Below, piece by piece: positions 7,569-49,346 of a stretch of 64,000 bases of DNA. Every line of letters begins with the position of its first letter. Positions within the stretch are counted from its first letter, which is position 1. This DNA is from Escherichia phage vB_EcoM_VR25: the sequence record NC_028925.1; one strand, given 5' to 3'. Under the pieces are notes generated by a model that had not been told where the DNA came from, made no database searches, and saw only the letters and a program-made list of their open reading frames with translations. The position numbers and the translations under genes are program-made.

Positions 7569-7597
7569 TTTGTTTTCCTCATCAGTAGTTGATGAGA

Positions 7598-14462: not shown

Positions 14463-14678
14463 TTACGCATATTTCTTATCAATATAAAAATGACCGCCAC
14501 CTTTGATAAAGACCCAGAATAGATTTCTATCGTCTGTATCCCGACAGTAAAAATCATCTAACTGGAAATAGTTTTCTTCAGGGAATTCAAGATGTCGGCC
14601 GAGTTCTATTGCATCAGAACCGAACGCTTTAGTAGCGGGACGACCGTCATCGTCCCATTTCTTGAAATTGAATTTCAT
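14463..14678 (-). CDS. hypothetical protein, 71 aa (position of soc.1)
   Basis: ORF in the array. Confidence 0.45.
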   Translation of the reverse strand: MKFNFKKWDDDGRPATKAFGSDAIELGRHLEFPEENYFQLDDFYCRDTDDRNLFWVFIKGGGHFYIDKKYA

Positions 14679-14887
14679 TTTGAGTGCTCAGCAATCAGTT
14701 TTAAAGTCTCTTCATTAACCCAATCGAACATGTGCATATGGTCGGATTTAACCGTAATCAATTGAGTAATATGACGGAGCTGATTAGCTAAGAGCTCTTC
14801 AACGAGCTCGTGGTCAGCATTTTTAATTAACCATTCTGCTCTCTTCTTACGAGCTTTCTTAAGCTGACGTTTATTTAAACGAGACAT
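14675..14887 (-). CDS. hypothetical basic protein, 70 aa (position of soc.2)
   Basis: ATGA/TAATG-coupled ORF. Confidence 0.45.
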   Translation of the reverse strand: MSRLNKRQLKKARKKRAEWLIKNADHELVEELLANQLRHITQLITVKSDHMHMFDWVNEETLKLIAEHSK

Positions 14888-15408
14888 TAATAACCTCGGT
14901 CCTGACGAGCAAAGTTCTCAGCATTTTTCAGGTAATACAATTTAAAGATTTCTTCAGCCGTAAGACCAAGGCCCTGGAACATATTCAGAACAAAGTGCAG
15001 AATATCAATCATTTCAAATTTAATTTCGAGCTGGTCTTCAGGAGACAAATCGTTAATCAGGGTTTGTTGCATTTCGCCATGCTGCGCTTTCCATGGTTTC
15101 CATACTGCAGATGCAGCTTTCTCACCATTAGACATGCCACCTAATGCAGTAATCAGTTCACGGAATTCATCATCGATATAATCTTTCTGGTTGCGGAGCC
15201 AGGTAACAACTTCGCCAGCAGTCGCCAGATTATCAGGGTGTTCGTTATATTCTGGTTTTTCTTTTGCTAAACGAACCTGCAATGATTTCTGCATATCAAG
15301 CATTACTTGCAGTGGGTCTTTATCTTCGTGAATCAGAGCATTAAAATATGCTTCTTCGGCTTTGTCAACACCAGCAATCAGTTGTGAACATTCATTAAAA
15401 TGTGCCAT
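14887..15408 (-). CDS. 56: dCTPase/dUTPase-type nucleotide pyrophosphohydrolase (gp56-like), 173 aa
   Basis: Size and position match T4 gp56; all-alpha MazG-like composition. Confidence 0.7.
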   Translation of the reverse strand: MAHFNECSQLIAGVDKAEEAYFNALIHEDKDPLQVMLDMQKSLQVRLAKEKPEYNEHPDNLATAGEVVTWLRNQKDYIDDEFRELITALGGMSNGEKAASAVWKPWKAQHGEMQQTLINDLSPEDQLEIKFEMIDILHFVLNMFQGLGLTAEEIFKLYYLKNAENFARQDRGY

Positions 15409-15490: not shown

Positions 15491-15688
15491 ATGCTAAAAC
15501 TATCTAGTCTAATTCAAGCCATTAAAGGCAGTCGTAAGCGAACGATTTTGGCCCTTTCGATACTCTGTTCAGTTCTTTTATGGAACTTCATTGTTGCCCC
15601 TATTGCATTGGCACATGGTCTTGTGCTTCCAGTCGTTGCCTTCGAATCAGTTGTAGATGTTTCACTGGCATTAATCGGCCTTATATAG
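15491..15688 (+). CDS. small hydrophobic membrane protein, 65 aa
   Basis: AAGGAGG Shine-Dalgarno 4 nt upstream of the ATG; plus strand in a minus-strand region; paralog of the next ORF. Confidence 0.5.
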   Translation: MLKLSSLIQAIKGSRKRTILALSILCSVLLWNFIVAPIALAHGLVLPVVAFESVVDVSLALIGLI

Positions 15689-15696
15689 GTGGAACT

Positions 15697-15897
15697 ATGG
15701 GAACATTATTCTATCAGATATGGAAATTAACCAGTAAGAAAGACAAGAAGCTTATCATGGGATTTTTAGCTCTTGATATTTTCCTGTGGAACTTACTGGT
15801 TGTACCTATCGCCGCAACACAAGGGGTACACTTACCCCAGGTCACAATGGGGCATATCCATTCCATCATCGGTTACTTTACCGGAATCCCTTCCTAA
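15697..15897 (+). CDS. small hydrophobic membrane protein, 66 aa, paralog of 15491-15688
   Basis: AGGTGG Shine-Dalgarno; shared motif FLWN(F/L)(I/L)V(A/V)PIA ... G(L/V)xLP. Confidence 0.5.
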   Translation: MGTLFYQIWKLTSKKDKKLIMGFLALDIFLWNLLVVPIAATQGVHLPQVTMGHIHSIIGYFTGIPS

Positions 15898-16922
15898 ACT
15901 TTTGCGTACTTCGAAAGTCGCATTCTTGCCATCAACCCTTGGGCAACGTTATCAGCCATATATGATTCGATTTGTTCAGGGGTTGCCCCTTCTGATTTAA
16001 CCATCTCATTTATGTCTTTTGTGTGCCACGGCGCATTATCCCAGAACATAACGGCTTCACCAGCCTCAACGAGTTTCTTCATACGTTTAATCGTATCAGG
16101 ATGTCTTGGCTCGTTGTCCATTACCCATACTCTGGTTTCAGCATAAGGAACCGCTTCCAATGACAATGTGCCGCCAGTTATCGCAATGCTGTTAGGGATA
16201 AACAAACTATCAATCGGACCTTCCATTACCCACACGCGCTTACGCTCATCAATCTTGTCTACCCCGTAGACTTTGGAAGCTTCTGGGTGGGCTTTGATGG
16301 TGATATATTTTTGTGGTGCATCTTTGCGAAGAGCTCGTCCTTGGAAAGATTCGATTTCTTTTTTGCCGTTGAAGATAGGAATAACCAAGCGTGGTTCATT
16401 CGTTTCATTCTTATACGTCCCAGGATTAACGGAGTTAACTAATGCAGGCCATTTGTTTGTAAACCATAGCCGGTCCCAAACACCAGCCGGAATACACCGA
16501 CTTTTTACATACTTAACTATCGGATGCGCTTCTGGTAAAGTATCGAGTCTTTCACAAAAAGCAAGCTGCTCGATAACCGGAGTTTTTTCTGGTTCTTTCG
16601 GAGTTTCTGCAACTTCAGTACGTTGTCGACCAAAGGCATTCTCCTTGTACTTCTCGACCATATATTCCCGGTGTAAATCTGGCTCAAACTCTTTTATGTA
16701 TTTGCTTATATGAGTGGAGTAGTCACAGTTAAAACATTTCACATAAACTGCACCATCAGCCGGATTGGTATACGCCCAGAATCGGGCCTTATGTGAATCC
16801 TTCTGGGAGTCGCCACAAACTTTACATCTGCAGTTTGCCTTAAATGTGCTCCCGGTGACTTCTCTATAACGTGGTTGATACGATAAAGCTCTGACCGCAA
16901 ATTCTTTATCAATATATGACAT
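15894..16922 (-). CDS. 61: DNA primase gp61, 342 aa
   Basis: Zinc-ribbon CxxC...CxxC and primase core; same length as T4 gp61. Confidence 0.9.
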   Translation of the reverse strand: MSYIDKEFAVRALSYQPRYREVTGSTFKANCRCKVCGDSQKDSHKARFWAYTNPADGAVYVKCFNCDYSTHISKYIKEFEPDLHREYMVEKYKENAFGRQRTEVAETPKEPEKTPVIEQLAFCERLDTLPEAHPIVKYVKSRCIPAGVWDRLWFTNKWPALVNSVNPGTYKNETNEPRLVIPIFNGKKEIESFQGRALRKDAPQKYITIKAHPEASKVYGVDKIDERKRVWVMEGPIDSLFIPNSIAITGGTLSLEAVPYAETRVWVMDNEPRHPDTIKRMKKLVEAGEAVMFWDNAPWHTKDINEMVKSEGATPEQIESYMADNVAQGLMARMRLSKYAKV

Positions 16923-18684: not shown

Positions 18685-18981
18685 TTATTTTACTTTAGCG
18701 TAATCTAAAGTCACTAACTGCGGTTCCATTGCCAATTGACGTTGACGACGGAGGACTGATGCACGGACATACACGCGAAATGCCTTTTTGCATTGGCGAA
18801 TCTGACGCTTAGTTGGGCGAACATCAAATTCATAGAATTCCACAAAGTCCATTTGTCCCTTGGTTTGTTGAGAAATAATAAGTTCCCAACGACTATTTAC
18901 GCGGTCTGCATAAAACTTGTGCTTACCAAAAGACTTGTCCCAAAAACCACTTTTTACGGGTTTCATAATTTGAATAATCAT
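18685..18981 (-). CDS. small basic protein with RPTKRQIRQCKKAFR motif, 98 aa
   Basis: Paralog of 17308-17529. Confidence 0.5.
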   Translation of the reverse strand: MIIQIMKPVKSGFWDKSFGKHKFYADRVNSRWELIISQQTKGQMDFVEFYEFDVRPTKRQIRQCKKAFRVYVRASVLRRQRQLAMEPQLVTLDYAKVK

Positions 18982-19310
18982 TTTTCACCTTCCACAGATT
19001 GACCAGTCATTTTGTAATATTCTTCGCGAGCATTATATAACGCAAATTCAATATCGCTGATGCAAATTTCTTCATTTTCCAGTTGAGATTCAACTGCCAG
19101 GATTAAACTACGTAGGGCTGCACCTTTACGTAAATCAATTTTATGATGACATTTTCCATTAACAAATGCTTCTACCTTGGCGTTGTGTGTATCCGCAGTT
19201 TTGTGTGCATACCAATGAATCCCAGCAGGATGTAATGACACTACACGATTATAAGCTGGAAAACCCAACGGGGTGATAACCAGAGTCACTTCAACTTTAT
19301 CAGTAATCAT
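18978..19310 (-). CDS. hypothetical protein, 110 aa
   Basis: ATGA-coupled ORF. Confidence 0.5.
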   Translation of the reverse strand: MITDKVEVTLVITPLGFPAYNRVVSLHPAGIHWYAHKTADTHNAKVEAFVNGKCHHKIDLRKGAALRSLILAVESQLENEEICISDIEFALYNAREEYYKMTGQSVEGEK

Positions 19311-19872: not shown

Positions 19873-20175
19873 TTATGCCAACTCATAATTGTGCATTGTC
19901 AGACAACGAATTTTTCCAGTAGTTGGGTGCATAACAGTCACACTAATTGTGTAATCATCACACACGTTAACAAAAGGTTCCGCGATAACAAATACTTCAC
20001 CGCCTGCCAACAGATACTCACGAAGGCTTGAGCGAACCGCTGAAGGGTGAACATCGCTTTTGAGCTTTATTAATTTACCGGTTTGAATGCCAGATGCGAT
20101 AAGAGCAGCACAGGTTTCATCACGGCGAGCGAATTGTCCAAAGTAGTAACGATTCATGTCGGTTTGATTAAACAT
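19873..20175 (-). CDS. hypothetical protein, 100 aa
   Basis: ORF bounded by a promoter/terminator cassette upstream and a hairpin downstream. Confidence 0.5.
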   Translation of the reverse strand: MFNQTDMNRYYFGQFARRDETCAALIASGIQTGKLIKLKSDVHPSAVRSSLREYLLAGGEVFVIAEPFVNVCDDYTISVTVMHPTTGKIRCLTMHNYELA

Positions 20176-20225
20176 ATGGTTTTCCTTTTTAGTGGGTTGG
20201 TTTATTGTGTAACTCAGTATGGAAT

Positions 20226-20257
20226 CATTATGCCCTAGTAGAATTCAGTTGTACACC
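20226..20257 (-). promoter_or_regulatory. early-type promoter (-35 GTGTACA, -10 CATAAT) with CCATACTGAGTTA leader
   Basis: Read from sequence; same cassette as at about 10964, 47122 and 47720. Confidence 0.5.
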
Positions 20258-20276
20258 CTTTTTAAAATAAAAAAAA

Positions 20277-20290
20277 GGACCCGAAGGTCC
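20277..20290 (-). terminator. stem-loop ggacc-cgaa-ggtcc followed by T8 on the minus strand
   Basis: Perfect inverted repeat with UUCG loop and an 8-nt T-run; downstream of gene 41. Confidence 0.65.
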
Positions 20291-20293
20291 TTG

Positions 20294-21733
20294 TTAGAAT
20301 TTCATCTGCGCCGCAAGGTCGTCCAGGTCGCTCCTGTTGACCCTGGTTTGTCTATTCATTTCAGCCTGACGATTCATCTCACCAGTGGCTTCTTTCACCG
20401 TAGGGCCTTGTTTAGGAGTTGAATCATCATCAACCTCATACCAGCGCTGATTACCTTTCTTAACACCCATTTTGAATTTATTATAGTAGTTCTTATCACC
20501 ATAACGAGACTTAAGCTGTTTGATTAACTGCAGTCCCATTTGAGCGAATTCTTCGGTCTCAACAACACCCAACATAAAGTCGGCCGTGTGAGCAATACCA
20601 AAGGATTCTGCGATGTCAGCCATGTCAATCTCGGCTGCAACGTTCGCGCCCCTTGTTGTCTGTGCTGCAGTCCACAGGACCACATTTTTCTCGACCGCCA
20701 GACCACGAAGTTCTTCTGCAACCATCTTAATCAGACCGTAACTATTCTCGGTAAACGTTTTCAGTCTTGAGCTTGCACAAATTGCCAGGTAGTCAACAAT
20801 AATCACATCCGGCACAAATCCTTGCTTCAGTTTGTACTCGTTCAGTAATGCACGGAAGGTATCCGCATGCGCGCCCCCAGTTGGATATTGTTTTATCTTC
20901 AGAGTCCCGAGAGTCCCGGAAGCACGCCATTTTTCCATCTTACTTTTGTATTCTGCCCATGATATATGTCCTTCATCAATATCATCCAGAGATACATCAA
21001 GCAAGTTGGCATCAATACGTTTGGCACATACTTCTTCAGCCATTTCCATGCTTATATAAAGAACATTATGACCAGTCTGAAGATAGTCAGCGGCTAACGA
21101 ACAAAGTCCCAGAGATTTGCCGACGTTTGTTCCGGCCAGTAAAACGTTCTCTGTACCATACTCAACTCCACCCTTCGTGATTTTATTCAGGATGTTAATA
21201 CGGAACGGAACTTTCTTCGATTTGTTTAGATAAGTCTGGAATCGAGCTTCGTAATCGTTTAACCAGTCATGACCCAGAGCAGAGTCAAAACAGATAGACA
21301 ATGCATCGCGCATGATGTCAGGGATAGCACCAATATCCGGGATTCGTTTATCACGTTTATCTTTCGGAAGTTCGGCATTACTCTGAATTTCGATAATCCT
21401 GGATGTTGCATTGAACATCGCAGACTTCTGTACATACTTCTCGGTTTCTTTAACCAGCCATTCCTGGTCTTCTGGGGTATCAGCCAGGACTCCTAAGAGT
21501 TTCTTTGTGCCTTCATATTCAACTTCAGAAAGGTCAGAACCGTCGAGCGCGATATCAAGTGCAGTCTTAGTTGGAACTGCTTGATATTCTTTTACATGTT
21601 CGTTAATCGTATTGAAAAGGGTCTTCGCAGGACCCTTTTCAAAATATGTATTATTCAGATATGGCCAGACTTTAACAAAATATTCCTTGTTAAAGAGTAG
21701 CTGGGATAAAATAGTTTCTACCACTTCCACCAC
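20294..21733 (-). CDS. 41: replicative DNA helicase gp41 (DnaB family), 479 aa
   Basis: Walker A GTNVGKS and DnaB-like motifs; position between dmd side and gene 40. Confidence 0.9.
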   Translation of the reverse strand: MVEVVETILSQLLFNKEYFVKVWPYLNNTYFEKGPAKTLFNTINEHVKEYQAVPTKTALDIALDGSDLSEVEYEGTKKLLGVLADTPEDQEWLVKETEKYVQKSAMFNATSRIIEIQSNAELPKDKRDKRIPDIGAIPDIMRDALSICFDSALGHDWLNDYEARFQTYLNKSKKVPFRINILNKITKGGVEYGTENVLLAGTNVGKSLGLCSLAADYLQTGHNVLYISMEMAEEVCAKRIDANLLDVSLDDIDEGHISWAEYKSKMEKWRASGTLGTLKIKQYPTGGAHADTFRALLNEYKLKQGFVPDVIIVDYLAICASSRLKTFTENSYGLIKMVAEELRGLAVEKNVVLWTAAQTTRGANVAAEIDMADIAESFGIAHTADFMLGVVETEEFAQMGLQLIKQLKSRYGDKNYYNKFKMGVKKGNQRWYEVDDDSTPKQGPTVKEATGEMNRQAEMNRQTRVNRSDLDDLAAQMKF

Positions 21734-22062
21734 CTCTTTTTCATTTTAATCTTATCAATTTCATCTTGTATTTGCATTGTAACACACTTTTCTACATGCA
21801 CTGCAAGCTCCGCTTTGCGGTCTTCAGAAGGGGTGCCGAAATCAACTGAAACTTTTCCAGATGGTTCAATTTTAATTCCGGTTACGTACACAATGTGACT
21901 GGACCCATCGGGAAGTGATAACAGAATTTCCTGTCGTACAGTTCCCATGGATTGCCGGATAATCTCCAAACTTTTTTCGTAGTAAGGTACAGAAGGAGCC
22001 TTAGCTCCCTCCGCATCTTTCTCGAAATTATCTAAATCAGATAAATCGATATCATTCATCAA
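21718..22062 (-). CDS. 40: gp40 head vertex assembly protein, 114 aa
   Basis: Size and position between 41 and uvsX as in T4. Confidence 0.6.
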   Translation of the reverse strand: MMNDIDLSDLDNFEKDAEGAKAPSVPYYEKSLEIIRQSMGTVRQEILLSLPDGSSHIVYVTGIKIEPSGKVSVDFGTPSEDRKAELAVHVEKCVTMQIQDEIDKIKMKKRWWKW

Positions 22063-23230
22063 GGTCTTCCATCATATCTAAATCGTTTTCGATATCTGCC
22101 GCAGATGGTTTTGTCTTACCCACCGGAGCAGAGTATTTTTCAACCTTGGAGGCAATAAGCTCATCAACTTCGGCATCAACAACAGCATTGCTATCGATTG
22201 CACCCAGTTGGTAATGACGTTTGATTGCATCACGGAAAGGTTCGTGCTTGAACAGTGGGCCCCAGAATTCGGTGCAGTTAGTATCTTTGGCTCGCCATGA
22301 TTTTTCTTCGCGGACCATTTCACCGGTCTCAACATCAAGATATTCACGGTTATACCAACCAACTTTCGGCTTCACCACAAATCCGATTTCCATTGCCATA
22401 TCGAGCAGGCCAGAATACGGGTCAATACCACCATCGAATTTTACATCAATGAAGAATTTACTTTTCTCTTTGACCATGCGAGATTTTTCGGCGTTCAGAA
22501 CAAATTGGAAGCCTTCAAGTTCTTTACCAGTTTCTTTAATCTGGCGTTTGCCGATAATGAATACGGTATCCGCAGAATACATAACACCAGTACCACCGGT
22601 CATAACTGTTTTGCTATACATCTCAATCGTCTCGATTGTATGGTTAACCGCGACACAAGGGATATCCTTGATACTAAAGAACGGTGTTACAATACGGAAC
22701 AGAGATTTCAGGGATTTAGCACGAGTCATATCGCCGACGACTTTTTCGTTCAATGCATCTTCTGTTTCTTTTTTCGATGCCATGTTACCGATTGAGTCAA
22801 TAAAGATAATGACTTTTTCGCCACGCTCAATTGCTTCAAGCTGGTTAACCATATCAACTTTCAATTGTTCGACCGACTGGATTGGTGTGTGGATAACACG
22901 TTCCGGGTCTACTTTCATTGCACGAAGATATGCTTCTGTGATACCAAATTCTGAATCATAGAACAAACAGATTGCTTCGGGGTATTTGTTCATATATGCA
23001 GAGACCATCGTTAAACCCATATTGGATTTAAAGTGTTTTGACGGACCAGCAAAAATAGTCAAACCTGACTGCATACCACCATCTAGTGCACCGCTGATTG
23101 CAATGTTCAGCATAGGGATTTTTGTACGAACTACATCTTTATCATTAAAGAACTTGGACTTGGTAAGAGTCGCGGTCATTTTGGATGTAGAAGCTTTAAT
23201 CAAACGGGATTTCAAATCTGCAATAGACAT
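22052..23230 (-). CDS. uvsX: UvsX recombinase (RecA-like), 392 aa
   Basis: RecA-type fold sequence; size and position match T4 UvsX. Confidence 0.9.
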   Translation of the reverse strand: MSIADLKSRLIKASTSKMTATLTKSKFFNDKDVVRTKIPMLNIAISGALDGGMQSGLTIFAGPSKHFKSNMGLTMVSAYMNKYPEAICLFYDSEFGITEAYLRAMKVDPERVIHTPIQSVEQLKVDMVNQLEAIERGEKVIIFIDSIGNMASKKETEDALNEKVVGDMTRAKSLKSLFRIVTPFFSIKDIPCVAVNHTIETIEMYSKTVMTGGTGVMYSADTVFIIGKRQIKETGKELEGFQFVLNAEKSRMVKEKSKFFIDVKFDGGIDPYSGLLDMAMEIGFVVKPKVGWYNREYLDVETGEMVREEKSWRAKDTNCTEFWGPLFKHEPFRDAIKRHYQLGAIDSNAVVDAEVDELIASKVEKYSAPVGKTKPSAADIENDLDMMEDLDE

Positions 23231-23421
23231 TCATTTTTTCCATAGGCATCATCATATTTTTCTCACAGGTTTAAGATAGGATAATTATATCACTGTATTT
23301 TTAGAGCAATTAACTTAGTAAACGTTTCCACGTTTCCAGTTTTCTTCAGCCAAATACTTATTATGCTTTTCTAATAACAACAAACCAATTACTGTTACAA
23401 CAATCAGAAGTAATAATAACA

Positions 23422-23925
23422 TCAGTTAATACCTTGACGAGCTTTTTCTTTGGCAATACATTTGTTGATATAAGTCAGACGAGCTTTAGCAGAACGCTGA
23501 TACAATGCATTATACTCTTTTGCTTCTGGAGCGCCTGTCTCCATTGCACGATAAGCTTCTGCACGCATTACATTAATTTGCATACCAATATAAGCTGCGC
23601 ATGTTTCAGCGATGCGAGCAACCATATCCAGGTCATTCTGGCGCTTGGTTTCTGCTTCCAGTTTAGCGATTACTTCATCATGCTTCGCGGCTTGTTCGCG
23701 CTGATATTCAACTTCACGTTGAGCATAATTTGCACAGTTATTTCCACACTGACTATTGGCACGTTTGTAAATCAGACCAGTCCCGCCTTTAAAATCAAAG
23801 GAACCATTATAGCGGGCTTTATCCGCAGCAACACGAGCTTGTCCAACTTCATCAGCACGCACAACATCGCCTTGGTAAGCACAACCAGACAATAACAGAA
23901 CTGCAGCAATCGCTAACTTTTTCAT
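23422..23925 (-). CDS. putative lipoprotein, about 167 aa
   Basis: Start at an internal ATG with GAGGA Shine-Dalgarno; signal peptide with lipobox LSGC; occupies the slot where T4 has beta-gt and 42. Confidence 0.6.
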   Translation of the reverse strand: MKKLAIAAVLLLSGCAYQGDVVRADEVGQARVAADKARYNGSFDFKGGTGLIYKRANSQCGNNCANYAQREVEYQREQAAKHDEVIAKLEAETKRQNDLDMVARIAETCAAYIGMQINVMRAEAYRAMETGAPEAKEYNALYQRSAKARLTYINKCIAKEKARQGIN

Positions 23926-24072
23926 TGTATTTTCCTCAATTAAAACATTCAAACTTGATTTGTAAAATTAACATTATCCAAGCCAAAATAAGAGTTGGAA
24001 TCATTGGTGGAACTGTCACTGCAAAGTAAACAGTCATACCAACAAATATCAGTAAAAGTAAACTAGTTATAA

Positions 24073-24315
24073 TCATTGTTTCACCACAATAATTTGTGCG
24101 TTTGTTTTACGTTCAGCAACGATTGCCCAAATCAATGCAATTACCCAACCAATCATCGTCCAACCAAACAGAAGGTTGATGAAAAAGATTCCGACATTGC
24201 TTCGGGTGCCACGCAGTAATGCGATAATCCATGGTAAGAAATATCCGATGAACATAACGACAAGAGAACCAAAACCAAACACACCAGCACCTACGATTAA
24301 AGCTTCCATTTTCAT
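24073..24315 (-). CDS. imm: superinfection immunity protein Imm (membrane), about 80 aa
   Basis: Two hydrophobic helices with LLFGWTMIGWVIALIWAI signature; immediately upstream of gene 43 as in T4; start ambiguous between two nearby ATGs. Confidence 0.7.
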   Translation of the reverse strand: MKMEALIVGAGVFGFGSLVVMFIGYFLPWIIALLRGTRSNVGIFFINLLFGWTMIGWVIALIWAIVAERKTNAQIIVVKQ

Positions 24316-24370
24316 ATCCTCATTTAGTTGATGAAAGAATAATACGGCAATCCATTGCCGTTGTAAACAC

Positions 24371-27085
24371 TTAAAAGTCAAACATATCAAAAAGAGTTGC
24401 TTTCTTTTCGTAATCAACCTTTGCAGCTTCAGAGAAACCTGTCAATGGCTTAACAAAAGTCTTCTGGAACAGTGTGTTGTAGTCCATCCATTGCAGGACC
24501 TGGTCGCGGATTTCAATCGGGAGTTCAATCCCCGATGGCCATGCAATCACAGTTTCACCAAACGGGTTGCCGACTTTAAGAGGAAGCACATACACTTTTT
24601 CCCCTTCCATGATTTGCGGAACAGTCTTCAGACCTTTAGTTGCACGCATATAAGCGAGCACACCTTTGATATGAGCCGGGCACTTAAATCCAGGGAAACC
24701 ACCTTCGTTATATTTCTGGATGTTGTTAACCGATGATACACCCGCGATGGTCATATAGTTAAGCTCATTAAATTCCTTGTTGAATTCCTTGAAGTATGTC
24801 TGCAGAGATTCTTCACCTTCTTGCAACATACGACGGATACATTCTTTCAGAGCTTTCTGGCATGCCTTTGGAGTACTCGACTTTTGAGTTTCCAGTCCCA
24901 TGATTTTCAGTTTCGGAACAGCATATCGTGTGCCTTCCATATCATATACGTTCAGTGCATAACGCTTCTTCGCTGTCCAGAATCCACCAACACCTTTAGA
25001 ACCCAGCGGAGGACATGCAATTGCTTCACGGTCCATAAACATAAGGTGCTGTTTGTTGTTCATGTATTCAGCCAGTTCACGGAAAGCTTTATCGATTGCC
25101 GGTTCCAGACGGTCTTTTGCAAACTTGTCCATGAAGTCAACCAGGTGGTTTGTATCACGGAATTTAGATTCGCCACCAACCTTTTTAATCAGGTTATCGC
25201 ACTGGATATAAATGGAGTCAGTATCACCATAGAATACGTAAGTCTGACCTTGTGTACCACAAACACCATCAAAGTATTCGTTAACTTTACGTTCAATCCA
25301 CTGCAATGCCAACTGCCCGAAAGATGTAATCGCAGTTGCATTTCGCAGGTCAAAGTAACGGAACCAGATATTGCCCAGGGCACCATAACAGCTATTGATA
25401 AGCAGTTTACGGTTAATCTGTGCGGTCATACCAGCAACTTCTTCCATCTGTGCTTTATACAGCATACCATTCAGGACGGTTTGATTCAGACCATGTAAGG
25501 TTGTTTTCATATTGTCATCAAAGTCATGACGATAATCAACTTCTGGTTCGGTTGTGCCGGTTCCTGGATTACTCAGAGCTTCCTTAATCAGTTCACCATT
25601 ACGTTGAGCAGCAAGCATATAACCTTTGTGTTCTTTACGCTGATTAAACACCTTGGTGACTTCTGTCGGAATAATACCCGCAACATCTTTAAAATACATC
25701 ATACCATTTGGCGCACAACTAAATGCATCAGATGGACGGTCAGCAGTTCCTGCGATGTATTCGTGCATATGGGCTGGTGCAAATGACCCGGCAATCGTTT
25801 CTGGACTGATGTTAATCTGTCGGATGATGCTCGGATAAAGAGATGTTAAGTCGCAGCTCATTACATATTTGTATGCGTTCGGAATCGGTTCCTTAACAAA
25901 TGCACCAGGGAACGATTGACGAACATGTGATTTGGTTTCCGGGATAACCTTGTTTTGAGTCTTCAGACTGTTAAAGATAATCGCATCCCAAGTTTTGATT
26001 GGGCTGAATACAGACTGAATCTGCATCTTTGCATAATAACCCATCGATTGGCTCAGGTTAATGAACTGTCGCTTACGGTCAATCTGTACAACACGATAAA
26101 CGTCAATGATGTTATAGCTAATGTATCGCTGATGATTTGATTCGCGCAGTTTAGAAATCGGGCCATCATACGGGAGTTTACCAACGCCCAGCTCAGATTC
26201 CGCAACATAGTCCAACGAGTAAGATGGTTGGTTTGTGAAGCTGAACTTTTTGTACAGGTCCAGATAATCCAGAACAGAGACACCCAGAATCTGAATGATT
26301 TCTTGTTCTTCACCAAAGCCGTTGTTAATGACTTTAACTTTTGTACGACGATGTGGACTTAGACGTTTTGCCGTAGCTTCACCAAATACATTTTTTAGGC
26401 GGTTGTAGATATATGGAATATCAAATTTCTCGATGTTCCAACCAGTTAACATAACCGGAGTTTTCTCGTTCCAGAATACCAAATACTGCTGGAGCATTTC
26501 TTCTTCTGAATCGAAAGCCATATAAACAATTTTTTCAAGGATTTCACTCGGGACTTCATCACCACCATCTTCCTGCAGCTTAGCAGCAATATCAATAGAC
26601 CATTGCTCCACAGTAGCGTATGGTGAGCCCAAAAGGTCAAAGACATAGAATTTATCGTCTACCGAATCATAGTGCGTCAGGGCATCAATAGGGTGACGTG
26701 CTTCAGACGGCTCAGGGAACCCATCAGGAGATGTCACCTCGATATCGAAGTTAGCCACACGGATTTTACTTGAATCATATTTGATTTCATGTGGGTAACG
26801 GTCGCTCAGGTATGCGAGTTTGAAATCGTCCATACCCATAGCTTCGAGGCCCATATCGTTCATGCGCTTCATCCATTGCGAAGCATCACGCATGGAATCA
26901 AACTCTTTTTTCACACAACCTTTATTATAGATGTCTGAATATTTTGTTGCTTGGCCTTCACGAGCGTGCATAAAGAGACAAGGAGTATATGGAATTTCAC
27001 GGGTTCGCTCATTACCATTCTTGTCAATATAACGTTCGTGAAGATTATCGCCGATTTGTTCGATAGTTAAATAAAATTCTTGCAT
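24371..27085 (-). CDS. 43: DNA polymerase gp43 (family B), 904 aa
   Basis: Exonuclease FDIE and polymerase YGDTDS motifs; size matches T4 gp43. Confidence 0.95.
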   Translation of the reverse strand: MQEFYLTIEQIGDNLHERYIDKNGNERTREIPYTPCLFMHAREGQATKYSDIYNKGCVKKEFDSMRDASQWMKRMNDMGLEAMGMDDFKLAYLSDRYPHEIKYDSSKIRVANFDIEVTSPDGFPEPSEARHPIDALTHYDSVDDKFYVFDLLGSPYATVEQWSIDIAAKLQEDGGDEVPSEILEKIVYMAFDSEEEMLQQYLVFWNEKTPVMLTGWNIEKFDIPYIYNRLKNVFGEATAKRLSPHRRTKVKVINNGFGEEQEIIQILGVSVLDYLDLYKKFSFTNQPSYSLDYVAESELGVGKLPYDGPISKLRESNHQRYISYNIIDVYRVVQIDRKRQFINLSQSMGYYAKMQIQSVFSPIKTWDAIIFNSLKTQNKVIPETKSHVRQSFPGAFVKEPIPNAYKYVMSCDLTSLYPSIIRQINISPETIAGSFAPAHMHEYIAGTADRPSDAFSCAPNGMMYFKDVAGIIPTEVTKVFNQRKEHKGYMLAAQRNGELIKEALSNPGTGTTEPEVDYRHDFDDNMKTTLHGLNQTVLNGMLYKAQMEEVAGMTAQINRKLLINSCYGALGNIWFRYFDLRNATAITSFGQLALQWIERKVNEYFDGVCGTQGQTYVFYGDTDSIYIQCDNLIKKVGGESKFRDTNHLVDFMDKFAKDRLEPAIDKAFRELAEYMNNKQHLMFMDREAIACPPLGSKGVGGFWTAKKRYALNVYDMEGTRYAVPKLKIMGLETQKSSTPKACQKALKECIRRMLQEGEESLQTYFKEFNKEFNELNYMTIAGVSSVNNIQKYNEGGFPGFKCPAHIKGVLAYMRATKGLKTVPQIMEGEKVYVLPLKVGNPFGETVIAWPSGIELPIEIRDQVLQWMDYNTLFQKTFVKPLTGFSEAAKVDYEKKATLFDMFDF

Positions 27086-27150
27086 TTGGTTTCCTTTATA
27101 GTCGAGTGATTGACTTTTGTTTTATGACTTGACGCTATTATACTACAAAA

Positions 27151-27164
27151 GGGACCGAAGTCCC
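27151..27164 (-). terminator. stem-loop gggac-cgaa-gtccc upstream of gene 43
   Basis: Inverted repeat with UUCG loop; may also act as a regulatory hairpin. Confidence 0.45.
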
Positions 27165-27170
27165 TTTGCT

Positions 27171-27377
27171 TTAAATTTCTACTACTTGTTTTTGCATTTG
27201 TGGATGGCGATTTTCATCATAAGTAAAACACATTATAACTTTACGCTCAGGGTGCTTTTCTAAAGTTTCTTTTACCTGATATTGGATTTGTTCATCTATA
27301 GGAAGATTTATCCAGGCTGGTGCAGGGATAATAATATTACCCATATCTGAAACGGTTAGTTGAGCAATAGAATTCAT
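27171..27377 (-). CDS. hypothetical protein, about 68 aa
   Basis: ATG one nt after the regA stop; no counterpart between regA and 43 in T4 as recalled. Confidence 0.45.
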   Translation of the reverse strand: MNSIAQLTVSDMGNIIIPAPAWINLPIDEQIQYQVKETLEKHPERKVIMCFTYDENRHPQMQKQVVEI

Positions 27378-27378
27378 A

Positions 27379-27747
27379 TTAATTACCAATTGTGTATTTG
27401 GCCACAAGTTTCCAGTCGTCTTTTTGTTTGAAGGAGATAACACGGAAGTTGTTTGTTACTGCGAACAATTCATTATGCTCTTCTTCTTTGATAGCGATTA
27501 AGCCCCAGTCTTCGAGCAGTTGAGCGATGGAATCACGGCGCTGATAGTCTTCACCATCAATATCCACCTGGCGACCATCCATGCGCAGCATTTCTTTGAA
27601 GTGGACAATATAGTAACGGCCTTGCTTTTGGAGGATGTGGCAGCTCTGGTACAGCACACGGTCTTTATTATTCGCGATGCCCATACGGGTCAGAGTTTCT
27701 TTAACTTTCAGGAAGTCTTCAGGTTGCTTTAATGTAATTTCAATCAT
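27379..27747 (-). CDS. regA: translational repressor RegA, 122 aa
   Basis: Near-identical length and sequence to T4 RegA by recall (MIEITLKQPEDFLKVKETLTRMGIANN...). Confidence 0.9.
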   Translation of the reverse strand: MIEITLKQPEDFLKVKETLTRMGIANNKDRVLYQSCHILQKQGRYYIVHFKEMLRMDGRQVDIDGEDYQRRDSIAQLLEDWGLIAIKEEEHNELFAVTNNFRVISFKQKDDWKLVAKYTIGN

Positions 27748-27748
27748 T

Positions 27749-28327
27749 TTACCATTCCAATATTTGTTTTTTAATTTCTTTTTGTTCTTTCACATTACTG
27801 GTAACGGTCTTTAAGAATTCATCCGTTACCAGACCTTTTGTCTTTTTCAAAACATCTTTAAGACTGCCTTTAACTTTTAACGTCTCAAGATACATCAAAG
27901 CATCATCTGCATTAATTGTATAATATTTCATTAGAAGCTTAATCACTAGCTGGACGTTGACCGCATCGGGTTCAGCCTTCGCCCATTTACCATATCGCTT
28001 ACCTTGCGGGACCGCGTGCAACAGATAATTATAATGCTGCTGGTCTGTTAACCCGGCACCGATTAAGTTCATCACATTGACCTGCATAATACAATCAACA
28101 TGTTGGCTCAGGGCATTGTCCAACCAAAATTTATTATAGTTTTCCGATTGAATCAGGCACCGAGGCTTTTTACTCACGGTGACATCATTAAGAATCGCAA
28201 ACAATTCATTTTCGGCTTTCTCTTTGTATGAATCAGACAATTCCTGAATTTTGTTAAAGTCGCGTGATTTCCACGCAACCTCATGTTCGTTTAATTGAAC
28301 GTCATCATCAAAGAGACTTACAGCCAT
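27749..28327 (-). CDS. 62: clamp loader small subunit gp62, 192 aa
   Basis: Position between regA and 44; size close to T4 gp62. Confidence 0.8.
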   Translation of the reverse strand: MAVSLFDDDVQLNEHEVAWKSRDFNKIQELSDSYKEKAENELFAILNDVTVSKKPRCLIQSENYNKFWLDNALSQHVDCIMQVNVMNLIGAGLTDQQHYNYLLHAVPQGKRYGKWAKAEPDAVNVQLVIKLLMKYYTINADDALMYLETLKVKGSLKDVLKKTKGLVTDEFLKTVTSNVKEQKEIKKQILEW

Positions 28328-29295
28328 TTCATTTCCCCAGCCAGTTGAGCAAACAAGTAGGTCAGGTGAACTTCGGTGTTCGCTGCCAGCCCGTGATACT
28401 GATTGTTCTCACCCACAATTTCATACATACGGATGATGCTTGCGCCGGTCAGTTTGCCGTACATTTCATCAGCGAGCTTGGCAATGAAGTTTGAATAATC
28501 ATTTGCAAATTTCGGCGCCAGACCACGAAGAACTTTAAAGTTACGGTCTTTAAGGGCATCAATCACATCATCGATTGGAGTGCGATTATTTGTCACGATA
28601 CTTAAGATACCAGAATCGATAACACCCTTCGCAGAGTAACGGTCAAGCTCGTTAATTGTCTTACGCAAGTCCGGGAAGTTATGCTTAACCAGGGCAGCAA
28701 CAACTTTCAGGTCTTCGATTTCAACACCTTCGTTCTTACAGATAGCCACTGAACGATGAATCATCTGCTTGAGCATGGAGGTACGGTCTTCATCGGTTGA
28801 CTCACCGAATTTAATCACACGGCAACGGGACTGCAATGGAGTGATGATACCATCGATGTTGTTCGCGGTCATAATGATAGAACAGTTACTTGAATAAGCT
28901 TCCATGAAACTACGAAGATGTCGCTGGGATTCTGCCAGACCCGCACGGTCAAACTCATCGATAACGATTACCTTACGGCGTCCTTCGATTGATTTGGATG
29001 ATGCAAAGCGAGTCAATTCATTACGCACAAAGTCAATTCGGCAATCGGAGCCGTTAACAAACAGCATATCAGAATTCGTATCCGCGCACATAGCTTTCGC
29101 AACTGTTGTCTTACCAGTGCCAGGGGAACTACTGACCAGAATCAAGTTAGGAATCAAACCTTTTTTAACAATCGCCTCTAATGTTTCTTTATCATGAGCC
29201 GGCAGAATACACTCTGATAATGTACCCGGGCGGTATTTTTGTTCCCACATGAAGTCGGATTCGTTGACTGTTAGACCGTTAATTACTGTTGCCAT
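28318..29295 (-). CDS. 44: clamp loader AAA+ subunit gp44, about 325 aa
   Basis: Walker A SSSPGTGKTT; start set at an internal ATG with GAGGA Shine-Dalgarno. Confidence 0.9.
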   Translation of the reverse strand: MATVINGLTVNESDFMWEQKYRPGTLSECILPAHDKETLEAIVKKGLIPNLILVSSSPGTGKTTVAKAMCADTNSDMLFVNGSDCRIDFVRNELTRFASSKSIEGRRKVIVIDEFDRAGLAESQRHLRSFMEAYSSNCSIIMTANNIDGIITPLQSRCRVIKFGESTDEDRTSMLKQMIHRSVAICKNEGVEIEDLKVVAALVKHNFPDLRKTINELDRYSAKGVIDSGILSIVTNNRTPIDDVIDALKDRNFKVLRGLAPKFANDYSNFIAKLADEMYGKLTGASIIRMYEIVGENNQYHGLAANTEVHLTYLFAQLAGEMKWL

Positions 29296-29352
29296 TATTA
29301 TTTTCCTCATATTAGTTTTACTTTGTACTCCATGGGGCCGAAGCCCCATTTA

Positions 29353-30048
29353 TTAATCTTGGAATTCGTGGCTAGAGCCTTGTTCCATTGCAATCACATA
29401 ACTTGCTTGTGTGCCTTCAAACTTCGTAGCAAATTTATCATCTTTCGCCCAAAGCATAACACGGTAATCAGCCGGAATCATTTTCATGTTCAGTTTGTTA
29501 ATGATAAATTTAAACGCTGCATCACCTTCGTAATCACCACACACCAGGGAATAAAGCGGGCGCGCTAACTCTTTATCTTCAAGCTGGTTATAACCATGGA
29601 TAACAATCTTACCATCTTTGTTGGTGATAGCAAAAGTATCCAGAGACAAACCACCGGCCACACGCAGAAGCTGCTGCAGGTCACTACCTTTCAGGTCGAA
29701 GATAACCTTAGCTACCGGGAAAGGAATCTTCTTAGCAGGGAACACGATAGTGCTCGGGTCAGCTGCAGGCCAGTGAATCGTTGAACGTTGGTCTTTGATA
29801 ATGATGTTTGATGCATCTTCAGCCAGAGATACTTCAGCTTGGTCAGTTACCAGGCCCAGGATACTTAAGAAGCCGTTCAGGTCATAAATTGCAGCTTCAA
29901 AGTCAATTGTATCATTGATTTCAGATTCACCATATGACGCTCCAGTTACGGAACGAGTCAGGATAGTATTACCTGGTTTAAGCATAATGCCAGAGTAGAT
30001 GGAGGTGAAGTTTTTCAGAACTGCGATAGTGTCTTTAGAGAATTTCAT
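29353..30048 (-). CDS. 45: sliding clamp gp45, 231 aa
   Basis: Sequence matches T4 gp45 by recall (MKFSKDT..., PAADPSTIVFP, LLWAK). Confidence 0.9.
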   Translation of the reverse strand: MKFSKDTIAVLKNFTSIYSGIMLKPGNTILTRSVTGASYGESEINDTIDFEAAIYDLNGFLSILGLVTDQAEVSLAEDASNIIIKDQRSTIHWPAADPSTIVFPAKKIPFPVAKVIFDLKGSDLQQLLRVAGGLSLDTFAITNKDGKIVIHGYNQLEDKELARPLYSLVCGDYEGDAAFKFIINKLNMKMIPADYRVMLWAKDDKFATKFEGTQASYVIAMEQGSSHEFQD

Positions 30049-32430: not shown

Positions 32431-32668
32431 CCTTGATGCAAGATTCTGCCATATGAATTAATGTCTCTGGTGTATCATCTTCCATTACATTAAAGCTAAA
32501 TTCTACAGCCCAATCAGTGACTACATAGACTTTGATAAGTTGACCGGTTTCCCGGTCAGTAATGGCTTCAAACCAATACTTAATAGTATTCGGTTGGTTA
32601 TCATCGTCAACCACATCACATTCGCGGATATGTTCAAGACCCGCTTCATTAAAATCATAAAGTCTCAC
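32405..32668 (-). CDS. hypothetical acidic protein, 87 aa (position of 46.1)
   Basis: ORF between 46 and 47. Confidence 0.45.
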   Translation of the reverse strand: MRLYDFNEAGLEHIRECDVVDDDNQPNTIKYWFEAITDRETGQLIKVYVVTDWAVEFSFNVMEDDTPETLIHMAESCIKDAYYDEDF

Positions 32669-33684
32669 GGTTGCACCTCAAGGTATAATTTGTTGGCCAA
32701 TGCTTTAAGAGCTTTTGATTCTTTTTCATTGGCATCAGGTAATGCATCGATATATTCTGCCATCATATCCGTTAAGCGTTTTATGTCTAGCTCTTCATCT
32801 GCATCTGTTGTGTCTACACTATTGTCAACCTTATTGACAATACGCAAGTCATGCACGCGCTTTTCTAATTCAGATTCAAACTTGGTCAGTTCTTTATCGA
32901 CTTTTTCTACAATAACACGGACTGATAAGTCTTTGAAGTCGTCGTAGTTAATAGTTTCGTTTGGATAGAAAATCTTCCGATGCCAGGTGGTTTCATTCGG
33001 AATAAATTTCATCTCTTCGGTTTCGGTATTAAATTCCCAGAACCCGCGAGGGTCGTTCTCATCGCCTGCTGTTAATGTCCATGGTGTACCGATGTACTTA
33101 ACGTTTGCAGCTTCTGAAATGGTATGGAAGTGTCCAGACCAAACTTGCTTGTACTTCTTAAGGAAATCAGGCTCAAGCCCGTGTGATTTCAATCCTTTAT
33201 AGAAATAAAACCCGGTTAATTCCCAGTGACCGATGCAATATTCAGCGCCAGAGGTTTTGATGTGGTCATGAATAGCTGTCGCGTTCTCATCACACATCCA
33301 TGGAATCATATCAATCTGACAGCCGTCAAAATCAACAGTTGTTGGCTTATCGTAGATTTTAACATGGTCATACTTATTCAGGAGTTCGGTGATAGCGTTA
33401 GGATGAATCTTATTCTTCAGATTCATGTCATGGTTCCCGATTATCGTGTGCAGAGTAATTCCTGCTTCACGAAGGAGTTCCATAATCTCGCGGCTGAATT
33501 CCATTGTCTTATGCGTTACGGCCTTACGGACATCAAAGATATCACCATATTGAATCCAGACTTTAATTCCATTCGCCTTAGAATATGCAATCGCCTGTAA
33601 AATACCATCGCGTTGAATGTTTTGAGCCCATGGGTCGTCAGCTTTGACACCCAAGTGCCAATCACCTAAATTTAAAATTTTCAT
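32665..33684 (-). CDS. 47: recombination nuclease subunit gp47 (Mre11/SbcD-like phosphoesterase), 339 aa
   Basis: N-terminal LGDWHLG and GNHD phosphoesterase motifs. Confidence 0.9.
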   Translation of the reverse strand: MKILNLGDWHLGVKADDPWAQNIQRDGILQAIAYSKANGIKVWIQYGDIFDVRKAVTHKTMEFSREIMELLREAGITLHTIIGNHDMNLKNKIHPNAITELLNKYDHVKIYDKPTTVDFDGCQIDMIPWMCDENATAIHDHIKTSGAEYCIGHWELTGFYFYKGLKSHGLEPDFLKKYKQVWSGHFHTISEAANVKYIGTPWTLTAGDENDPRGFWEFNTETEEMKFIPNETTWHRKIFYPNETINYDDFKDLSVRVIVEKVDKELTKFESELEKRVHDLRIVNKVDNSVDTTDADEELDIKRLTDMMAEYIDALPDANEKESKALKALANKLYLEVQP

Positions 33685-48335: not shown

Positions 48336-49346
48336 TTAACGATAATAGGAATTGTGGTTGTCAAGATATACCTCTTCAACAAACTTGTCCCAGAACTTCA
48401 TGTCTACCTTATCGGGCATACCGTTCTTCGCAGCCCAGACGGCATTGGTTTCGACTTCATCGACGATTGCTTCAAGTTCAGCTTGTACATCTTTAAAAGC
48501 GTGTAGGCCTTGTTTGATTTCAAGGATAAATGGAGCCGTACGTAAAGGATATTGGAGATCGCCTGCTTGATAGATTTCCTTTAACTGGTATCCAGCACGA
48601 TAAGCATGGCTCAGAGCTTTCCAGTCAATACCTTCGTTAGCTTCGGCCTTACGGGCGCGTTCGCCATATTCAGCATCAAGTTTATTCAGAGATTGCTTAA
48701 GCTCGATTAATGACAAAGTAGTTTGGTATTTGCGACCGAGAACAGTATAAAACGTTTGAGGTCCAGTTTTCTCATGGTTATGGAATACCCATTCGCAGAA
48801 TTCGTTCTCTGGGAGACGATGCTTAATATCTTCAACTTTAGTGCGACGTTGTTTAGTCGAACCATCTTCTTGGTAGTCAACCCACTGTTCAGGAATCTGG
48901 TTAACAATTGCCAGTACACCACGTAAAGCCGCCAGTCTAGAACCTTTAACACCATATTTTGAAGCTTGCTTACGGACGTACCCCAAATATGCTTTCATGT
49001 TGGTCGTATAGAACCGTGAACGGTTGTCTTGGATAAATTTCCATACATCTGGTAAATCGGATTTGACTACCAGGTTAGCCGGAGTGTGAATCATGTCCAG
49101 AGCAACAGTTTCGCCTTCAGCCGCCAGTTTAAAGAAATATTTCAGGCTATAAAGCTCGTGGTCAACATCGTCTTTTGTGTTTTTGGTAGCCGTGTTATTC
49201 GTGTTCAAGTTGGTATGGTTCATAGCCGTACCTAACAGAATGTCACGTGGGTGTGGAACAAAGATTTCCTTAAAATCGACATCAGATTCTGGAGTACTTG
49301 TTCCGTAAAGATGGCTACCGAAGTAGCCTTTCATAACTGTTCTCAT
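48336..49346 (-). CDS. Pol-beta-fold nucleotidyltransferase-like protein, 336 aa
   Basis: N-terminal FGSHLYGTSTPESDVDF fits the hG[GS]x(9-13)DhD NTase signature; ATGA-coupled to the upstream membrane protein gene. Confidence 0.55.
   Translation of the reverse strand: MRTVMKGYFGSHLYGTSTPESDVDFKEIFVPHPRDILLGTAMNHTNLNTNNTATKNTKDDVDHELYSLKYFFKLAAEGETVALDMIHTPANLVVKSDLPDVWKFIQDNRSRFYTTNMKAYLGYVRKQASKYGVKGSRLAALRGVLAIVNQIPEQWVDYQEDGSTKQRRTKVEDIKHRLPENEFCEWVFHNHEKTGPQTFYTVLGRKYQTTLSLIELKQSLNKLDAEYGERARKAEANEGIDWKALSHAYRAGYQLKEIYQAGDLQYPLRTAPFILEIKQGLHAFKDVQAELEAIVDEVETNAVWAAKNGMPDKVDMKFWDKFVEEVYLDNHNSYYR

Follow-up and report, generated by a model that had tools for sequence, protein, structure and literature searches.

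In the 64,000-nucleotide stretch of Escherichia phage vB_EcoM_VR25 (NC_028925.1) analysed here (the window), the interval between the recombinase gene uvsX and the DNA polymerase gene 43 (positions 23231-24370) is best read, from sequence comparison, as an emptied version of the cytosine-modification locus of the Tevenvirinae, from which a cassette of the type found in phages RB69 and JS98 was lost. We propose, with a probability of about 0.6, that cytosine is replaced in this phage by 5-methylcytosine (5mC), which would be made by a thymidylate synthase (Td) acting as a dCMP methylase owing to an exchange of Asn to Asp at the position of residue 177 of E. coli ThyA. The source phage is a T4-like phage of the genus Gaprivervirus. 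Positions 20000-30000 of the window show 95.5% DNA identity to Escherichia phage vB_EcoM_VR7; for SP18, VR20 and about 25 others the value is 92-93%. The majority of the window proteins are 97-100% identical to their VR7 counterparts in amino acid (aa) sequence. The first gene of the window is rIIA, likewise in the VR7 record.

The interval is exactly the gap between the start of uvsX (23230) and the stop of gene 43 (24371), both located on the minus strand. A preliminary description of this DNA had listed uvsX followed by a lipoprotein gene, small membrane open reading frames (ORFs), imm and gene 43, and this order was found to be exact by coordinates, translations and hydropathy (Table 1). 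The same compact gene order is present in VR7. In total, 31 phage records cover at least 80% of positions 20000-30000; in the 25 of them that were listed, the matched spans for this 10-kb query are 9.8-11.1 kb long, so that there is no room for a 4-kb cassette in these 25. The exact lipoprotein sequence of the window occurs only on metagenomic contigs of 6.5-8.7 kb. One of these (L015) shows the full order 43, imm, lipoprotein gene, 35-aa ORF and uvsX, and two others (L014 and L016) show the part from 43 to the 35-aa ORF, followed by the contig end. The compact arrangement is not an assembly artefact, and judging from the matched genomes the loss of the cassette appears to be genus-wide.

The version of this locus in the closest sister genus (Dhakavirus) is the RB69/JS98 arabinosylation cluster. 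In JS98, five genes are located between uvsX and the lipoprotein gene orf43, namely an arabinosyltransferase of the RB69 ORF046/047 type (orf38), a thymidylate synthase (TS) homolog of the 5-hydroxy-dCMP synthase type (orf39), a thymidylate-kinase-like gene (orf40), a phosphatase (orf41) and a nucleotidyltransferase-kinase (orf42). RB69 (genus Mosigvirus) contains the same cassette genes plus additional ones. Its gp48 was shown to act as a 5-hydroxy-dCMP synthase, and arabinosylated 5-hydroxycytosine is the product of the cluster, as is also predicted for the Dhakaviruses (2026 NAR, PMC13326640). By blastn, window positions 22015-23294 correspond to JS98 20663-21929 and positions 23633-24499 to JS98 26509-27373. 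Where JS98 has about 4.6 kb with the five-gene cassette and the 3' part of orf43, the window has about 340 bp, and DNA homology restarts within the lipoprotein gene.

The missing genes were searched for by tblastn in the window and, as a relative for which the complete genome could be covered, in VR7. T4 gp42, beta-gt, alpha-gt and Dam gave nothing better than an E-value of about 2 in either, and the positive controls were recovered (UvsX 79%, gp56 68%, gp61 60%, a-gt.2 64%). The five JS98 cassette proteins had no match in the window or VR7 (best E 0.019), and none was obtained there with RB69 p003, p046/47, p050-p053 and p055 or with JS98 orf38 and orf40-42. With JS98 orf39 and RB69 p048, a faint match to td (E 0.008) was all that could be obtained. 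Neither a T4-type dCMP hydroxymethylase (TS fold with Asp177 and an acidic residue 143) nor arabinosyltransferase and UDP-arabinose synthesis genes were found in the window or VR7. A hidden Markov model (HMM) of the TS family gave no match in the six-frame translation of the window, and no glycosyltransferase Pfam domain was detected in the window ORFs scanned. The slot shares with JS98 or RB69 only the ORF054c-type ORF, imm and the lipoprotein gene. A dCMP-modifying TS homolog fills this slot in T4, RB69 and JS98, and therefore a loss is the best explanation for the empty slot of the nested genus Gaprivervirus.

The td gene of VR7 is located at about 142 kb, outside the 64-kb window, and lends support to the idea of the preliminary description that a different modification pathway is encoded elsewhere. 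In an alignment of the TS family, Td of VR7 and SP18 carries Asp at the position of ThyA Asn177, within the motif GLPFDIGSY compared to GLPFNIASY in JS98 Td, T4-type Td and ThyA. At residues 143/147/165/169/177, VR7, SP18 and two further clusters have L/H/Q/D/D, the canonical TS has L/H/Q/D/N, ThyA of the 5mC phage PaMx74 L/P/L/D/D, gp42 D/T/M/D/D and RB69 p048 E/T/M/N/D. VR7, SP18 and the two further clusters share the TS fold with the catalytic Cys146 in addition to Asp177. The hydrophobic residue at 143 and the residues for folate binding and hydride transfer are intact, as Gaprivervirus Td keeps Leu143, His147, Gln165, Asp169, Tyr209, Glu58, Trp80, Tyr94 and the C-terminal residues. The full signature of the 5-hydroxy-dCMP synthases (D169N, N177D, L143E) is not present, since VR7 Td has Asp169. 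No gaps are needed to align T4 Td (PDB 1TIS) over the motif, and the alignment with E. coli ThyA is also free of gaps at the decisive residues. Nearby, Gaprivervirus Td shows the extra changes A179G and A182G and has Gln at residue 82. The protein is under purifying selection (dN/dS, the ratio of nonsynonymous to synonymous substitution rates, of 0.04).

This allele is sharply delimited. GLPFDIGSYG was found in 4/4 clusters with 85-98% identity to VR7 Td, and GLPFNIASYA in 115/116 other homologs (69% identity or less) among the matches listed. Exactly 31 phage records contain a Td of the Gaprivervirus type, after which identity drops from 85.7% to 69.9%. The compact uvsX-43 region was also found in 31 records, and all 25 of those listed recur among the Td matches. 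According to the TS-family HMM, VR7 has one TS-fold gene and JS98 has two. As companions, VR7 encodes cd, frd and this single TS-fold gene, gp56 is encoded in the window, and the SP18 region read contains cd, td and frd. All annotated records among the 31 carry td as thymidylate synthase or hypothetical protein, labels which should be read with caution.

It was shown that N177D turns a canonical TS from dUMP to dCMP and yields 5-methyl-dCMP (PMC8670742). Asp177 confers the preference for dCMP, and the bulky hydrophobic Leu143 keeps water out, so that no hydroxymethylation takes place; the synthases for 5-hydroxymethyl-dCMP have Asp or Glu at position 143 (PMC13326640). Among TS homologs selected by Asp177 and tested, the Xp12 enzyme and 5/7 metagenomic ones make 5-methyl-dCMP (bioRxiv 10.1101/2024.12.05.627091). 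Since Asp177 is combined with Leu143 and a kept methylation machinery, Gaprivervirus Td would be expected to methylate dCMP to 5-methyl-dCMP.

In the proposed pathway, the dCTPase of gene 56 would convert dCTP to dCMP, which Td with its full machinery for reductive methylation would turn into 5-methyl-dCMP. The dNMP kinase gp1 and the host NDP kinase would then form 5-methyl-dCTP for incorporation by gp43, and dihydrofolate would be recycled by dihydrofolate reductase (DHFR, frd). T4 gp1 is known as a promiscuous kinase for non-canonical pyrimidines, and in 5mC phages dTTP arises by deamination, with no need for a second TS (bioRxiv 10.1101/2024.12.05.627091). Gapriverviruses could obtain dTMP by deamination of 5-methyl-dC nucleotides (Cd), through host ThyA or by salvaging degraded host DNA. 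The product would be a sugar-free DNA with 5mC in place of cytosine, which Alc, DenA and DenB of the phage itself would leave intact. Such DNA would resist many type II restriction enzymes, but BREX and possibly type IV enzymes could still act on it.

A published analysis of VR7 DNA is consistent with this prediction. In the E. coli BREX study (PMC6326788 with Supplementary Figures S4-S5), a restriction panel led to the statement that the DNA of VR7 "has modified cytosines" and carries no glycosylation. The panel included pre-treatment with T4 beta-glucosyltransferase; T4 and VR5 are given there as glycosylated and T4147 as hydroxymethylated, with VR7 described separately, and the authors left the base in VR7 DNA unnamed. 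A DNA which is modified, free of sugar and set apart from the hydroxymethylated control is what 5mC would give. The same source states that BREX blocks VR7 completely, likewise T4147, and that T4 escapes. The restriction sensitivity unlike that of T4, which the preliminary description had anticipated, is thereby borne out. Its other suggestion, unmodified cytosine, is contradicted by the same panel and by the lack of restriction-site avoidance described below.

Genes directed against cytosine-containing DNA are kept in Gaprivervirus. The genus is without a synthase of the 5-hydroxymethylcytosine (hmC) type and yet retains dCTPase, DenA, DenB, Ndd and Alc (PMC8056088, PMC12115623), and the whole genus was scored as lacking an hmC gene (PMC12115623). 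The absence of modification genes is thus already published as an unexplained paradox and is not new. Between VR7 and SP18, dN/dS is 0.09 for alc, 0.04 for denA, 0.08 for denB and 0.07 for ndd (dS about 0.1-0.4), compared to 0.03-0.08 for nrdA, 32, 59, rnh and 52; replication genes span 0.03-0.10. For gene 56, it is 0.08-0.10 in the comparisons of the window with JS98 (0.077) and of VR7 with T4. The gene 56 allele of VR7 is T4-like (77% to T4), and the RB49 homolog is 50-56% identical to any of those compared; both allele classes, JS98-like and T4-like, stem from phages with a dCMP-modifying TS homolog. The retained exclusion genes are functional and under purifying selection and are not relics.

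Restriction-site statistics were obtained by comparing observed (O) counts of palindromic words with those expected (E) under a Markov model of order k-2. The median log2 O/E of palindromic hexamers containing C/G is -0.11 in the window, -0.12 in VR7, -0.10 in JS98 and -0.17 in T4, compared to -1.25 in RB49, a T4-like coliphage treated in the literature as having canonical DNA. SP18 is likewise indistinguishable from JS98 and T4. In 50 kb of RB49, 26/64 palindromic hexamers are absent (p = 7e-18 against non-palindromes). EcoRI sites are observed 49 times in the window with 33 expected, and 0 times in RB49 with 12 expected. For PstI and CCWGG, the window shows 22/20 and 141/131 observed/expected sites, and the O/E of CCWGG in RB49 is 0.36. 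Since site avoidance is seen neither in the window nor in VR7 and SP18, Gaprivervirus genomes behave like modified genomes. The traits of the RB49 type (Krischvirus), strong site avoidance together with the lack of alc and denB, were not found; VR7 and SP18 possess alc and denB, and both genes are constrained there. Both are absent from Krischvirus and Pseudotevenvirus, two genera of T4-related coliphages to which no hmC gene and a probable role as high transducers were ascribed (PMC12115623). In Gapriverviruses, full-length alc is adjoined by alcb, which repeats the N-terminal part of Alc in 77 aa (dN/dS 0.22). No such gene is present in JS98. It could modulate Alc.

Several points weigh against a replacement by 5mC. 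The genes td, alc, denA, denB, cd and frd lie beyond the window, and we infer from 31/31 relatives that this phage has them and shares the Asp177 allele of td. Natural homologs acting on dCMP usually also alter His147 and Gln165; Gaprivervirus Td keeps both, and its activity or specificity could be mixed. A different means of protection, or a short time since the loss, could in principle also account for the lack of site avoidance. In E. coli K-12, McrBC, McrA and Mrr would be expected to attack DNA fully substituted with 5mC. MG1655 is given as host in one Gaprivervirus record, and a homolog of T4 Arn was not found in VR7, the SP18 region or JS98. The arn.1 gene of VR7 (160458-160655), labelled "anti-restriction nuclease" in RefSeq, is a homolog of T4 arn.1 (70% over 37 aa) and not the McrBC inhibitor Arn. 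The Gaprivervirus branches of Td and DenB are unusually long, with 68-69% identity for Td against 85% between JS98 and T4 and 45-49% for DenB against 71%, and in a relative-rate asymmetry test DenB ranked 2nd and Td 5th among 86-87 genes. This gives weak support, as T-even phages recombine as mosaics and similar outliers such as denV occur. In addition, the "modified cytosines" of VR7 (PMC6326788) rest on a restriction panel and not on nucleoside chemistry.

A non-canonical cytosine other than 5mC, made by an enzyme not yet recognised or from the Td product in additional steps, would leave Asp177 Td as a first step or as irrelevant, and we regard this as unlikely. It would more easily explain plating on an McrBC-positive K-12 host, it fits the plain description of VR7 cytosines as "modified" (PMC6326788), and an unknown base or protein was proposed for Gaprivervirus before (PMC8056088, PMC12115623). 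Several small Gaprivervirus-specific ORFs carry no assigned function, among them window ORFs 7311-7616, 18978-19310, 19873-20175, 41272-41544 and 47792-48076, for which no informative family match was obtained. However, none of the window ORFs common to VR7 but absent from JS98 and from the T4 regions compared exceeds 120 aa. Over the whole VR7 genome, the genes without a JS98 counterpart encode homing endonucleases, internal-head-type proteins, a collagen-like fibre and small proteins of 60-184 aa, in which no enzyme domain was found. The scans revealed neither a TET gene nor one for a glycosyltransferase, a methyltransferase or a second TS-fold enzyme. VR7 DNA is unglycosylated according to the restriction panel, and Leu143 and the intact C-terminus of Td point to a methyl product. 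Individual candidates were also considered and rejected. VR7 ORF147c, annotated as cytidine/deoxycytidylate deaminase-like and absent from JS98, was considered as a deaminase of 5mC nucleotides; it has no Pfam match and no H/CxE...PCxxC zinc motifs. ORF135c is an HNH homing endonuclease, ORF136c (DUF7275/DUF7277) is common to JS98, and ORF134c has no family match and is also common to JS98.

Ordinary cytosine in the DNA is improbable. It would require that dCTPase, Alc, DenA and DenB have shifted in specificity or timing so as to leave the phage DNA unharmed and that Td-Asp177 is a tolerated variant which still makes dTMP. Homologs of dCTPase and DenA do occur in the unmodified-cytosine phages RB49 and RB43 (PMC8056088), and the divergence between VR7 and JS98 is unusually high for DenB, Alc and gp1 (49-54%). 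On the other hand, VR7 DNA was reported by experiment as modified (PMC6326788), restriction-site avoidance is missing in sharp contrast to RB49, and alc and denB are absent from the genera Krischvirus and Pseudotevenvirus mentioned above. Moreover, the window gp56 is very close to that of JS98, a phage with a full 5-hydroxy-dCMP synthase cassette, and the exchange of Asn177 to Asp abolishes the preference for dUMP in every cited case (PMC13326640, PMC8670742). Slightly less probable still is that gene 42 or a glycosyltransferase gene is located in the part of this genome outside the window. The window covers only 64 kb of about 170 kb, and the phage is a mosaic with JS98-like gene 56 and imm and T4-type nrdD/nrdG; however, the complete VR7 genome and the SP18 region 125-170 kb contain no such gene, the genus-wide scoring argues against it (PMC12115623), and the TS homolog is always placed in the uvsX-43 slot in T4, RB69 and JS98, which is empty here.

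The proposed 5mC system resembles that of the 5mC phages Xanthomonas Xp12 and Pseudomonas PaMx74, in which the TS-fold protein also combines Asp177 with Leu143 and is encoded by the only TS-fold gene of the genome. Also alike are the companion dCTP pyrophosphatase, dCMP-family deaminase and DHFR; in PaMx74 the set consists of pyrophosphohydrolase, thyA, cd and frd. In contrast, Gaprivervirus Td is near-canonical and T4-type (69% to T4-type Td) with His147 and Gln165 kept, its gene is part of a frd-td-nrdA operon and not of a dedicated module, its product is predicted, and the phages are T4-like myoviruses with Alc, DenA, DenB and Ndd for exclusion of host DNA. Engineered E. coli ThyA N177D and Lactobacillus casei TS N229D carry the same single substitution on an otherwise canonical site, which switches the enzyme from dUMP to dCMP and yields 5-methyl-dCMP (PMC8670742, PMC13326640). 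These are laboratory mutants, whereas Gaprivervirus Td is natural, carries A179G, A182G and Gln82 in addition and has been under long purifying selection.

With the T4 system of gp42 and alpha- and beta-glucosyltransferase, Gaprivervirus shares the slot beside uvsX and the surrounding gp56, gp1, Alc, DenA and DenB. It differs in the lack of gp42, alpha-gt and beta-gt homologs and, according to the VR7 panel, in unglycosylated DNA. T4 gp42 has Asp143, Thr147 and Met165 and no TS C-terminus, unlike Gaprivervirus Td. For the RB69/JS98 cluster, the JS98 flanks are conserved in the window (uvsX, the orf43-type lipoprotein gene, the ORF054c-type ORF, imm and 43), but none of the five JS98 cassette genes is present, nor is RB69 p003, p050 or p055, and the D169N of the 5-hydroxy-dCMP synthases is missing from Gaprivervirus Td.

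The preliminary description had placed the missing genes in the canonical slots of T4. The genes are indeed missing, but the frame holds only in part, as the alpha-gt and dam slots are specific for T4 and the lost set is the RB69/JS98-type cassette and not beta-gt and 42. As it had claimed, no alpha-gt is located between 47 and 55: genes 47 and a-gt.2 are separated by 57 bp, which leaves no space for alpha-gt, and neither alpha-gt, for which T4 alpha-gt gave no tblastn match, nor 47.1 or mobB was found between them. T4 a-gt.2 itself matches at 33754-33912 (64%). VR7 has the same order of 47 and a-gt.2, and JS98 has 47, 47.1 and a-gt.2, with alpha-gt missing there too. The two plus-strand membrane ORFs reported in place of dam between 56 and 61 are present as well (15491-15897), and no Dam homolog was found. 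They look like tandem paralogs with the common motif L..LLWN..V.PIA...G..LP.V. Homologs of the first are annotated in VR7 (ORF033w, described there as similar to an RB32 ORF) and RB69 (ORF029w), so that it is a conserved small gene and not filler. In JS98, 56 is followed by 61 without dam, and RB69 also lacks dam between 56 and 61. Since alpha-gt and dam are missing from JS98 and the RB69 region read, their absence is normal outside Tequatrovirus.

The missing dam goes along with a near-total purge of GATC. Only 1 site is observed in the 64-kb window with 233 expected, and the observed/expected numbers are 5/579 in VR7 and 22/533 in JS98, all without dam. The phages with dam show 86/255 (T4, 77 kb) and 297/290 (RB49, 50 kb). 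No other 4-mer in the window, VR7 or JS98 is nearly as under-represented as GATC, which is also almost eliminated in SP18. Enterobacteriophages lacking dam are classically known for selection against GATC; nothing specific on GATC depletion in JS98 or other T4-like phages was found in the literature searched.

Table 1. Coordinates of the features discussed (window positions unless another genome is named; aa, amino acids; TM, transmembrane segment).
Feature	Position	Strand	Remarks
Gene 56 (dCTPase/dUTPase)	14887..15408	-	intact; aa identity to JS98 93%, RB69 89%, VR7 70%, T4 68%, RB49 54%
Two tandem small membrane ORFs	15491-15688, second inside 15580-15897	+	T4 dam position; translation, hydropathy
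Gene 61	15894-16922		
uvsX	22052..23230	-	RecA-like recombinase; 100% aa identity to VR7 UvsX, 79% to T4; one slot border
Junction interval	23295..23632	.	no DNA similarity to JS98; replaces JS98 21930-26508
35-aa ORF	23315..23422	-	one predicted TM; translation, hydropathy
Lipoprotein gene	23422..23925	-	167 aa from ATG; signal peptide and lipobox MKKLAIAAVLLLSG-C (LLSGC)
46-aa membrane ORF	23936..24076	-	= VR7 "42.1", RB69 ORF054c (61%), JS98 orf44 (69%); tblastn, hydropathy
imm	24073..24315	-	superinfection immunity membrane protein, 80 aa, two TM; 47% to T4, 88% to JS98, 75% to VR7
Gene 43	24371..27085	-	DNA polymerase; aa identity to VR7 gp43 99.7%, JS98 78%, T4 60%; other slot border
Gene 47	32665-33684	-	
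a-gt.2	33742-33915	-	57-bp gap to gene 47
Sole GATC site of the window	48557..48560	.	k-mer analysis, site listing
alcb	VR7 137010-137243; SP18 138588-138821; L017 7979-8212		

The genes remaining in the slot were compared individually. The lipoprotein is the ortholog of JS98 orf43 (53% identity, tblastn) and of VR7 ORF049c (78%). It was assigned to phrog_1754, where no function is given, and has no Pfam family match; T4 Imm.1 weakly matches the VR7 ortholog ORF049c (tblastn E 4.7e-4). For the 35-aa ORF, tblastn gave no match in VR7, JS98 or the T4 regions compared; it is called as a gene in all 3 metagenomic contigs encoding the identical lipoprotein. The 46-aa ORF is the sole element of the RB69 uvsX-43 island with a homolog here, imm aside, which sits elsewhere in RB69. 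The identical imm gene in contigs L014-L016 matches PF14373. In L014 (4135-7511) and L016 (2022-5398), gene 43 is called as 507 + 232 + 391 aa and seems to be interrupted by an inserted ORF of 232 aa, possibly a mobile element or an intein-like insertion.

The window also shows a mosaic of alleles. Gene 56 corresponds to the RB69/JS98 allele (89-93% aa identity) and is only 70% identical to the T4-like allele of VR7, and imm is closer to JS98 than to VR7, while the genes flanking 56 and imm are 98-100% VR7-like. No record was found with the exact gp56 sequence of the window. A T4-type anaerobic ribonucleotide reductase module (38306-40590 and 41835-42155) is absent from VR7 and JS98. It contains nrdG (79% aa identity to T4), an uninterrupted nrdD of 605 aa (98% to T4 over 425 aa) and a 49.2-like ORF (76%), and these identities suggest a recent exchange with a Tequatrovirus. 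At 14463-14887, two small minus-strand ORFs (71 and 70 aa) are located where VR7 and T4 carry the homing endonuclease segF; they have no match in VR7, JS98 or the T4 regions compared. The motB.1 gene (6556-7311) encodes 251 aa here and in VR7, compared to 182 aa in JS98 and 119 aa in T4, and its N-terminal extension has no family assignment beyond phrog_2333.

Two comparative studies (PMC8056088, PMC12115623) have pointed to the paradox that machinery for the destruction and silencing of cytosine DNA is kept in Gapriverviruses, with no enzyme known to make a substitute. One of them withholds advice on the therapeutic use of these phages, as the risk of transduction hinges on the cytosine status. 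Gapriverviruses are common coliphages. If true, the formation of 5-methyl-dCMP by Td-Asp177 would close this gap, and it would predict which defences are evaded (many type II enzymes) and which are not (BREX, possibly McrBC-type systems). This mechanism was not found in the literature searched and is what our analysis adds to the known paradox. We lean slightly towards the view that Gapriverviruses are the first T4-like (Straboviridae) lineage with a complete replacement of cytosine by plain 5mC through the exchange of Asn177 to Asp in Td. The ancestral cassette for arabinosylated 5-hydroxycytosine would thereby have become dispensable, dTMP would be left to deamination, host ThyA or salvage, and Alc and DenB would have been re-tuned to tell cytosine from 5mC. 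If this holds true, it would be a natural functional switch by one residue in a textbook enzyme, followed by the loss of a whole modification island.

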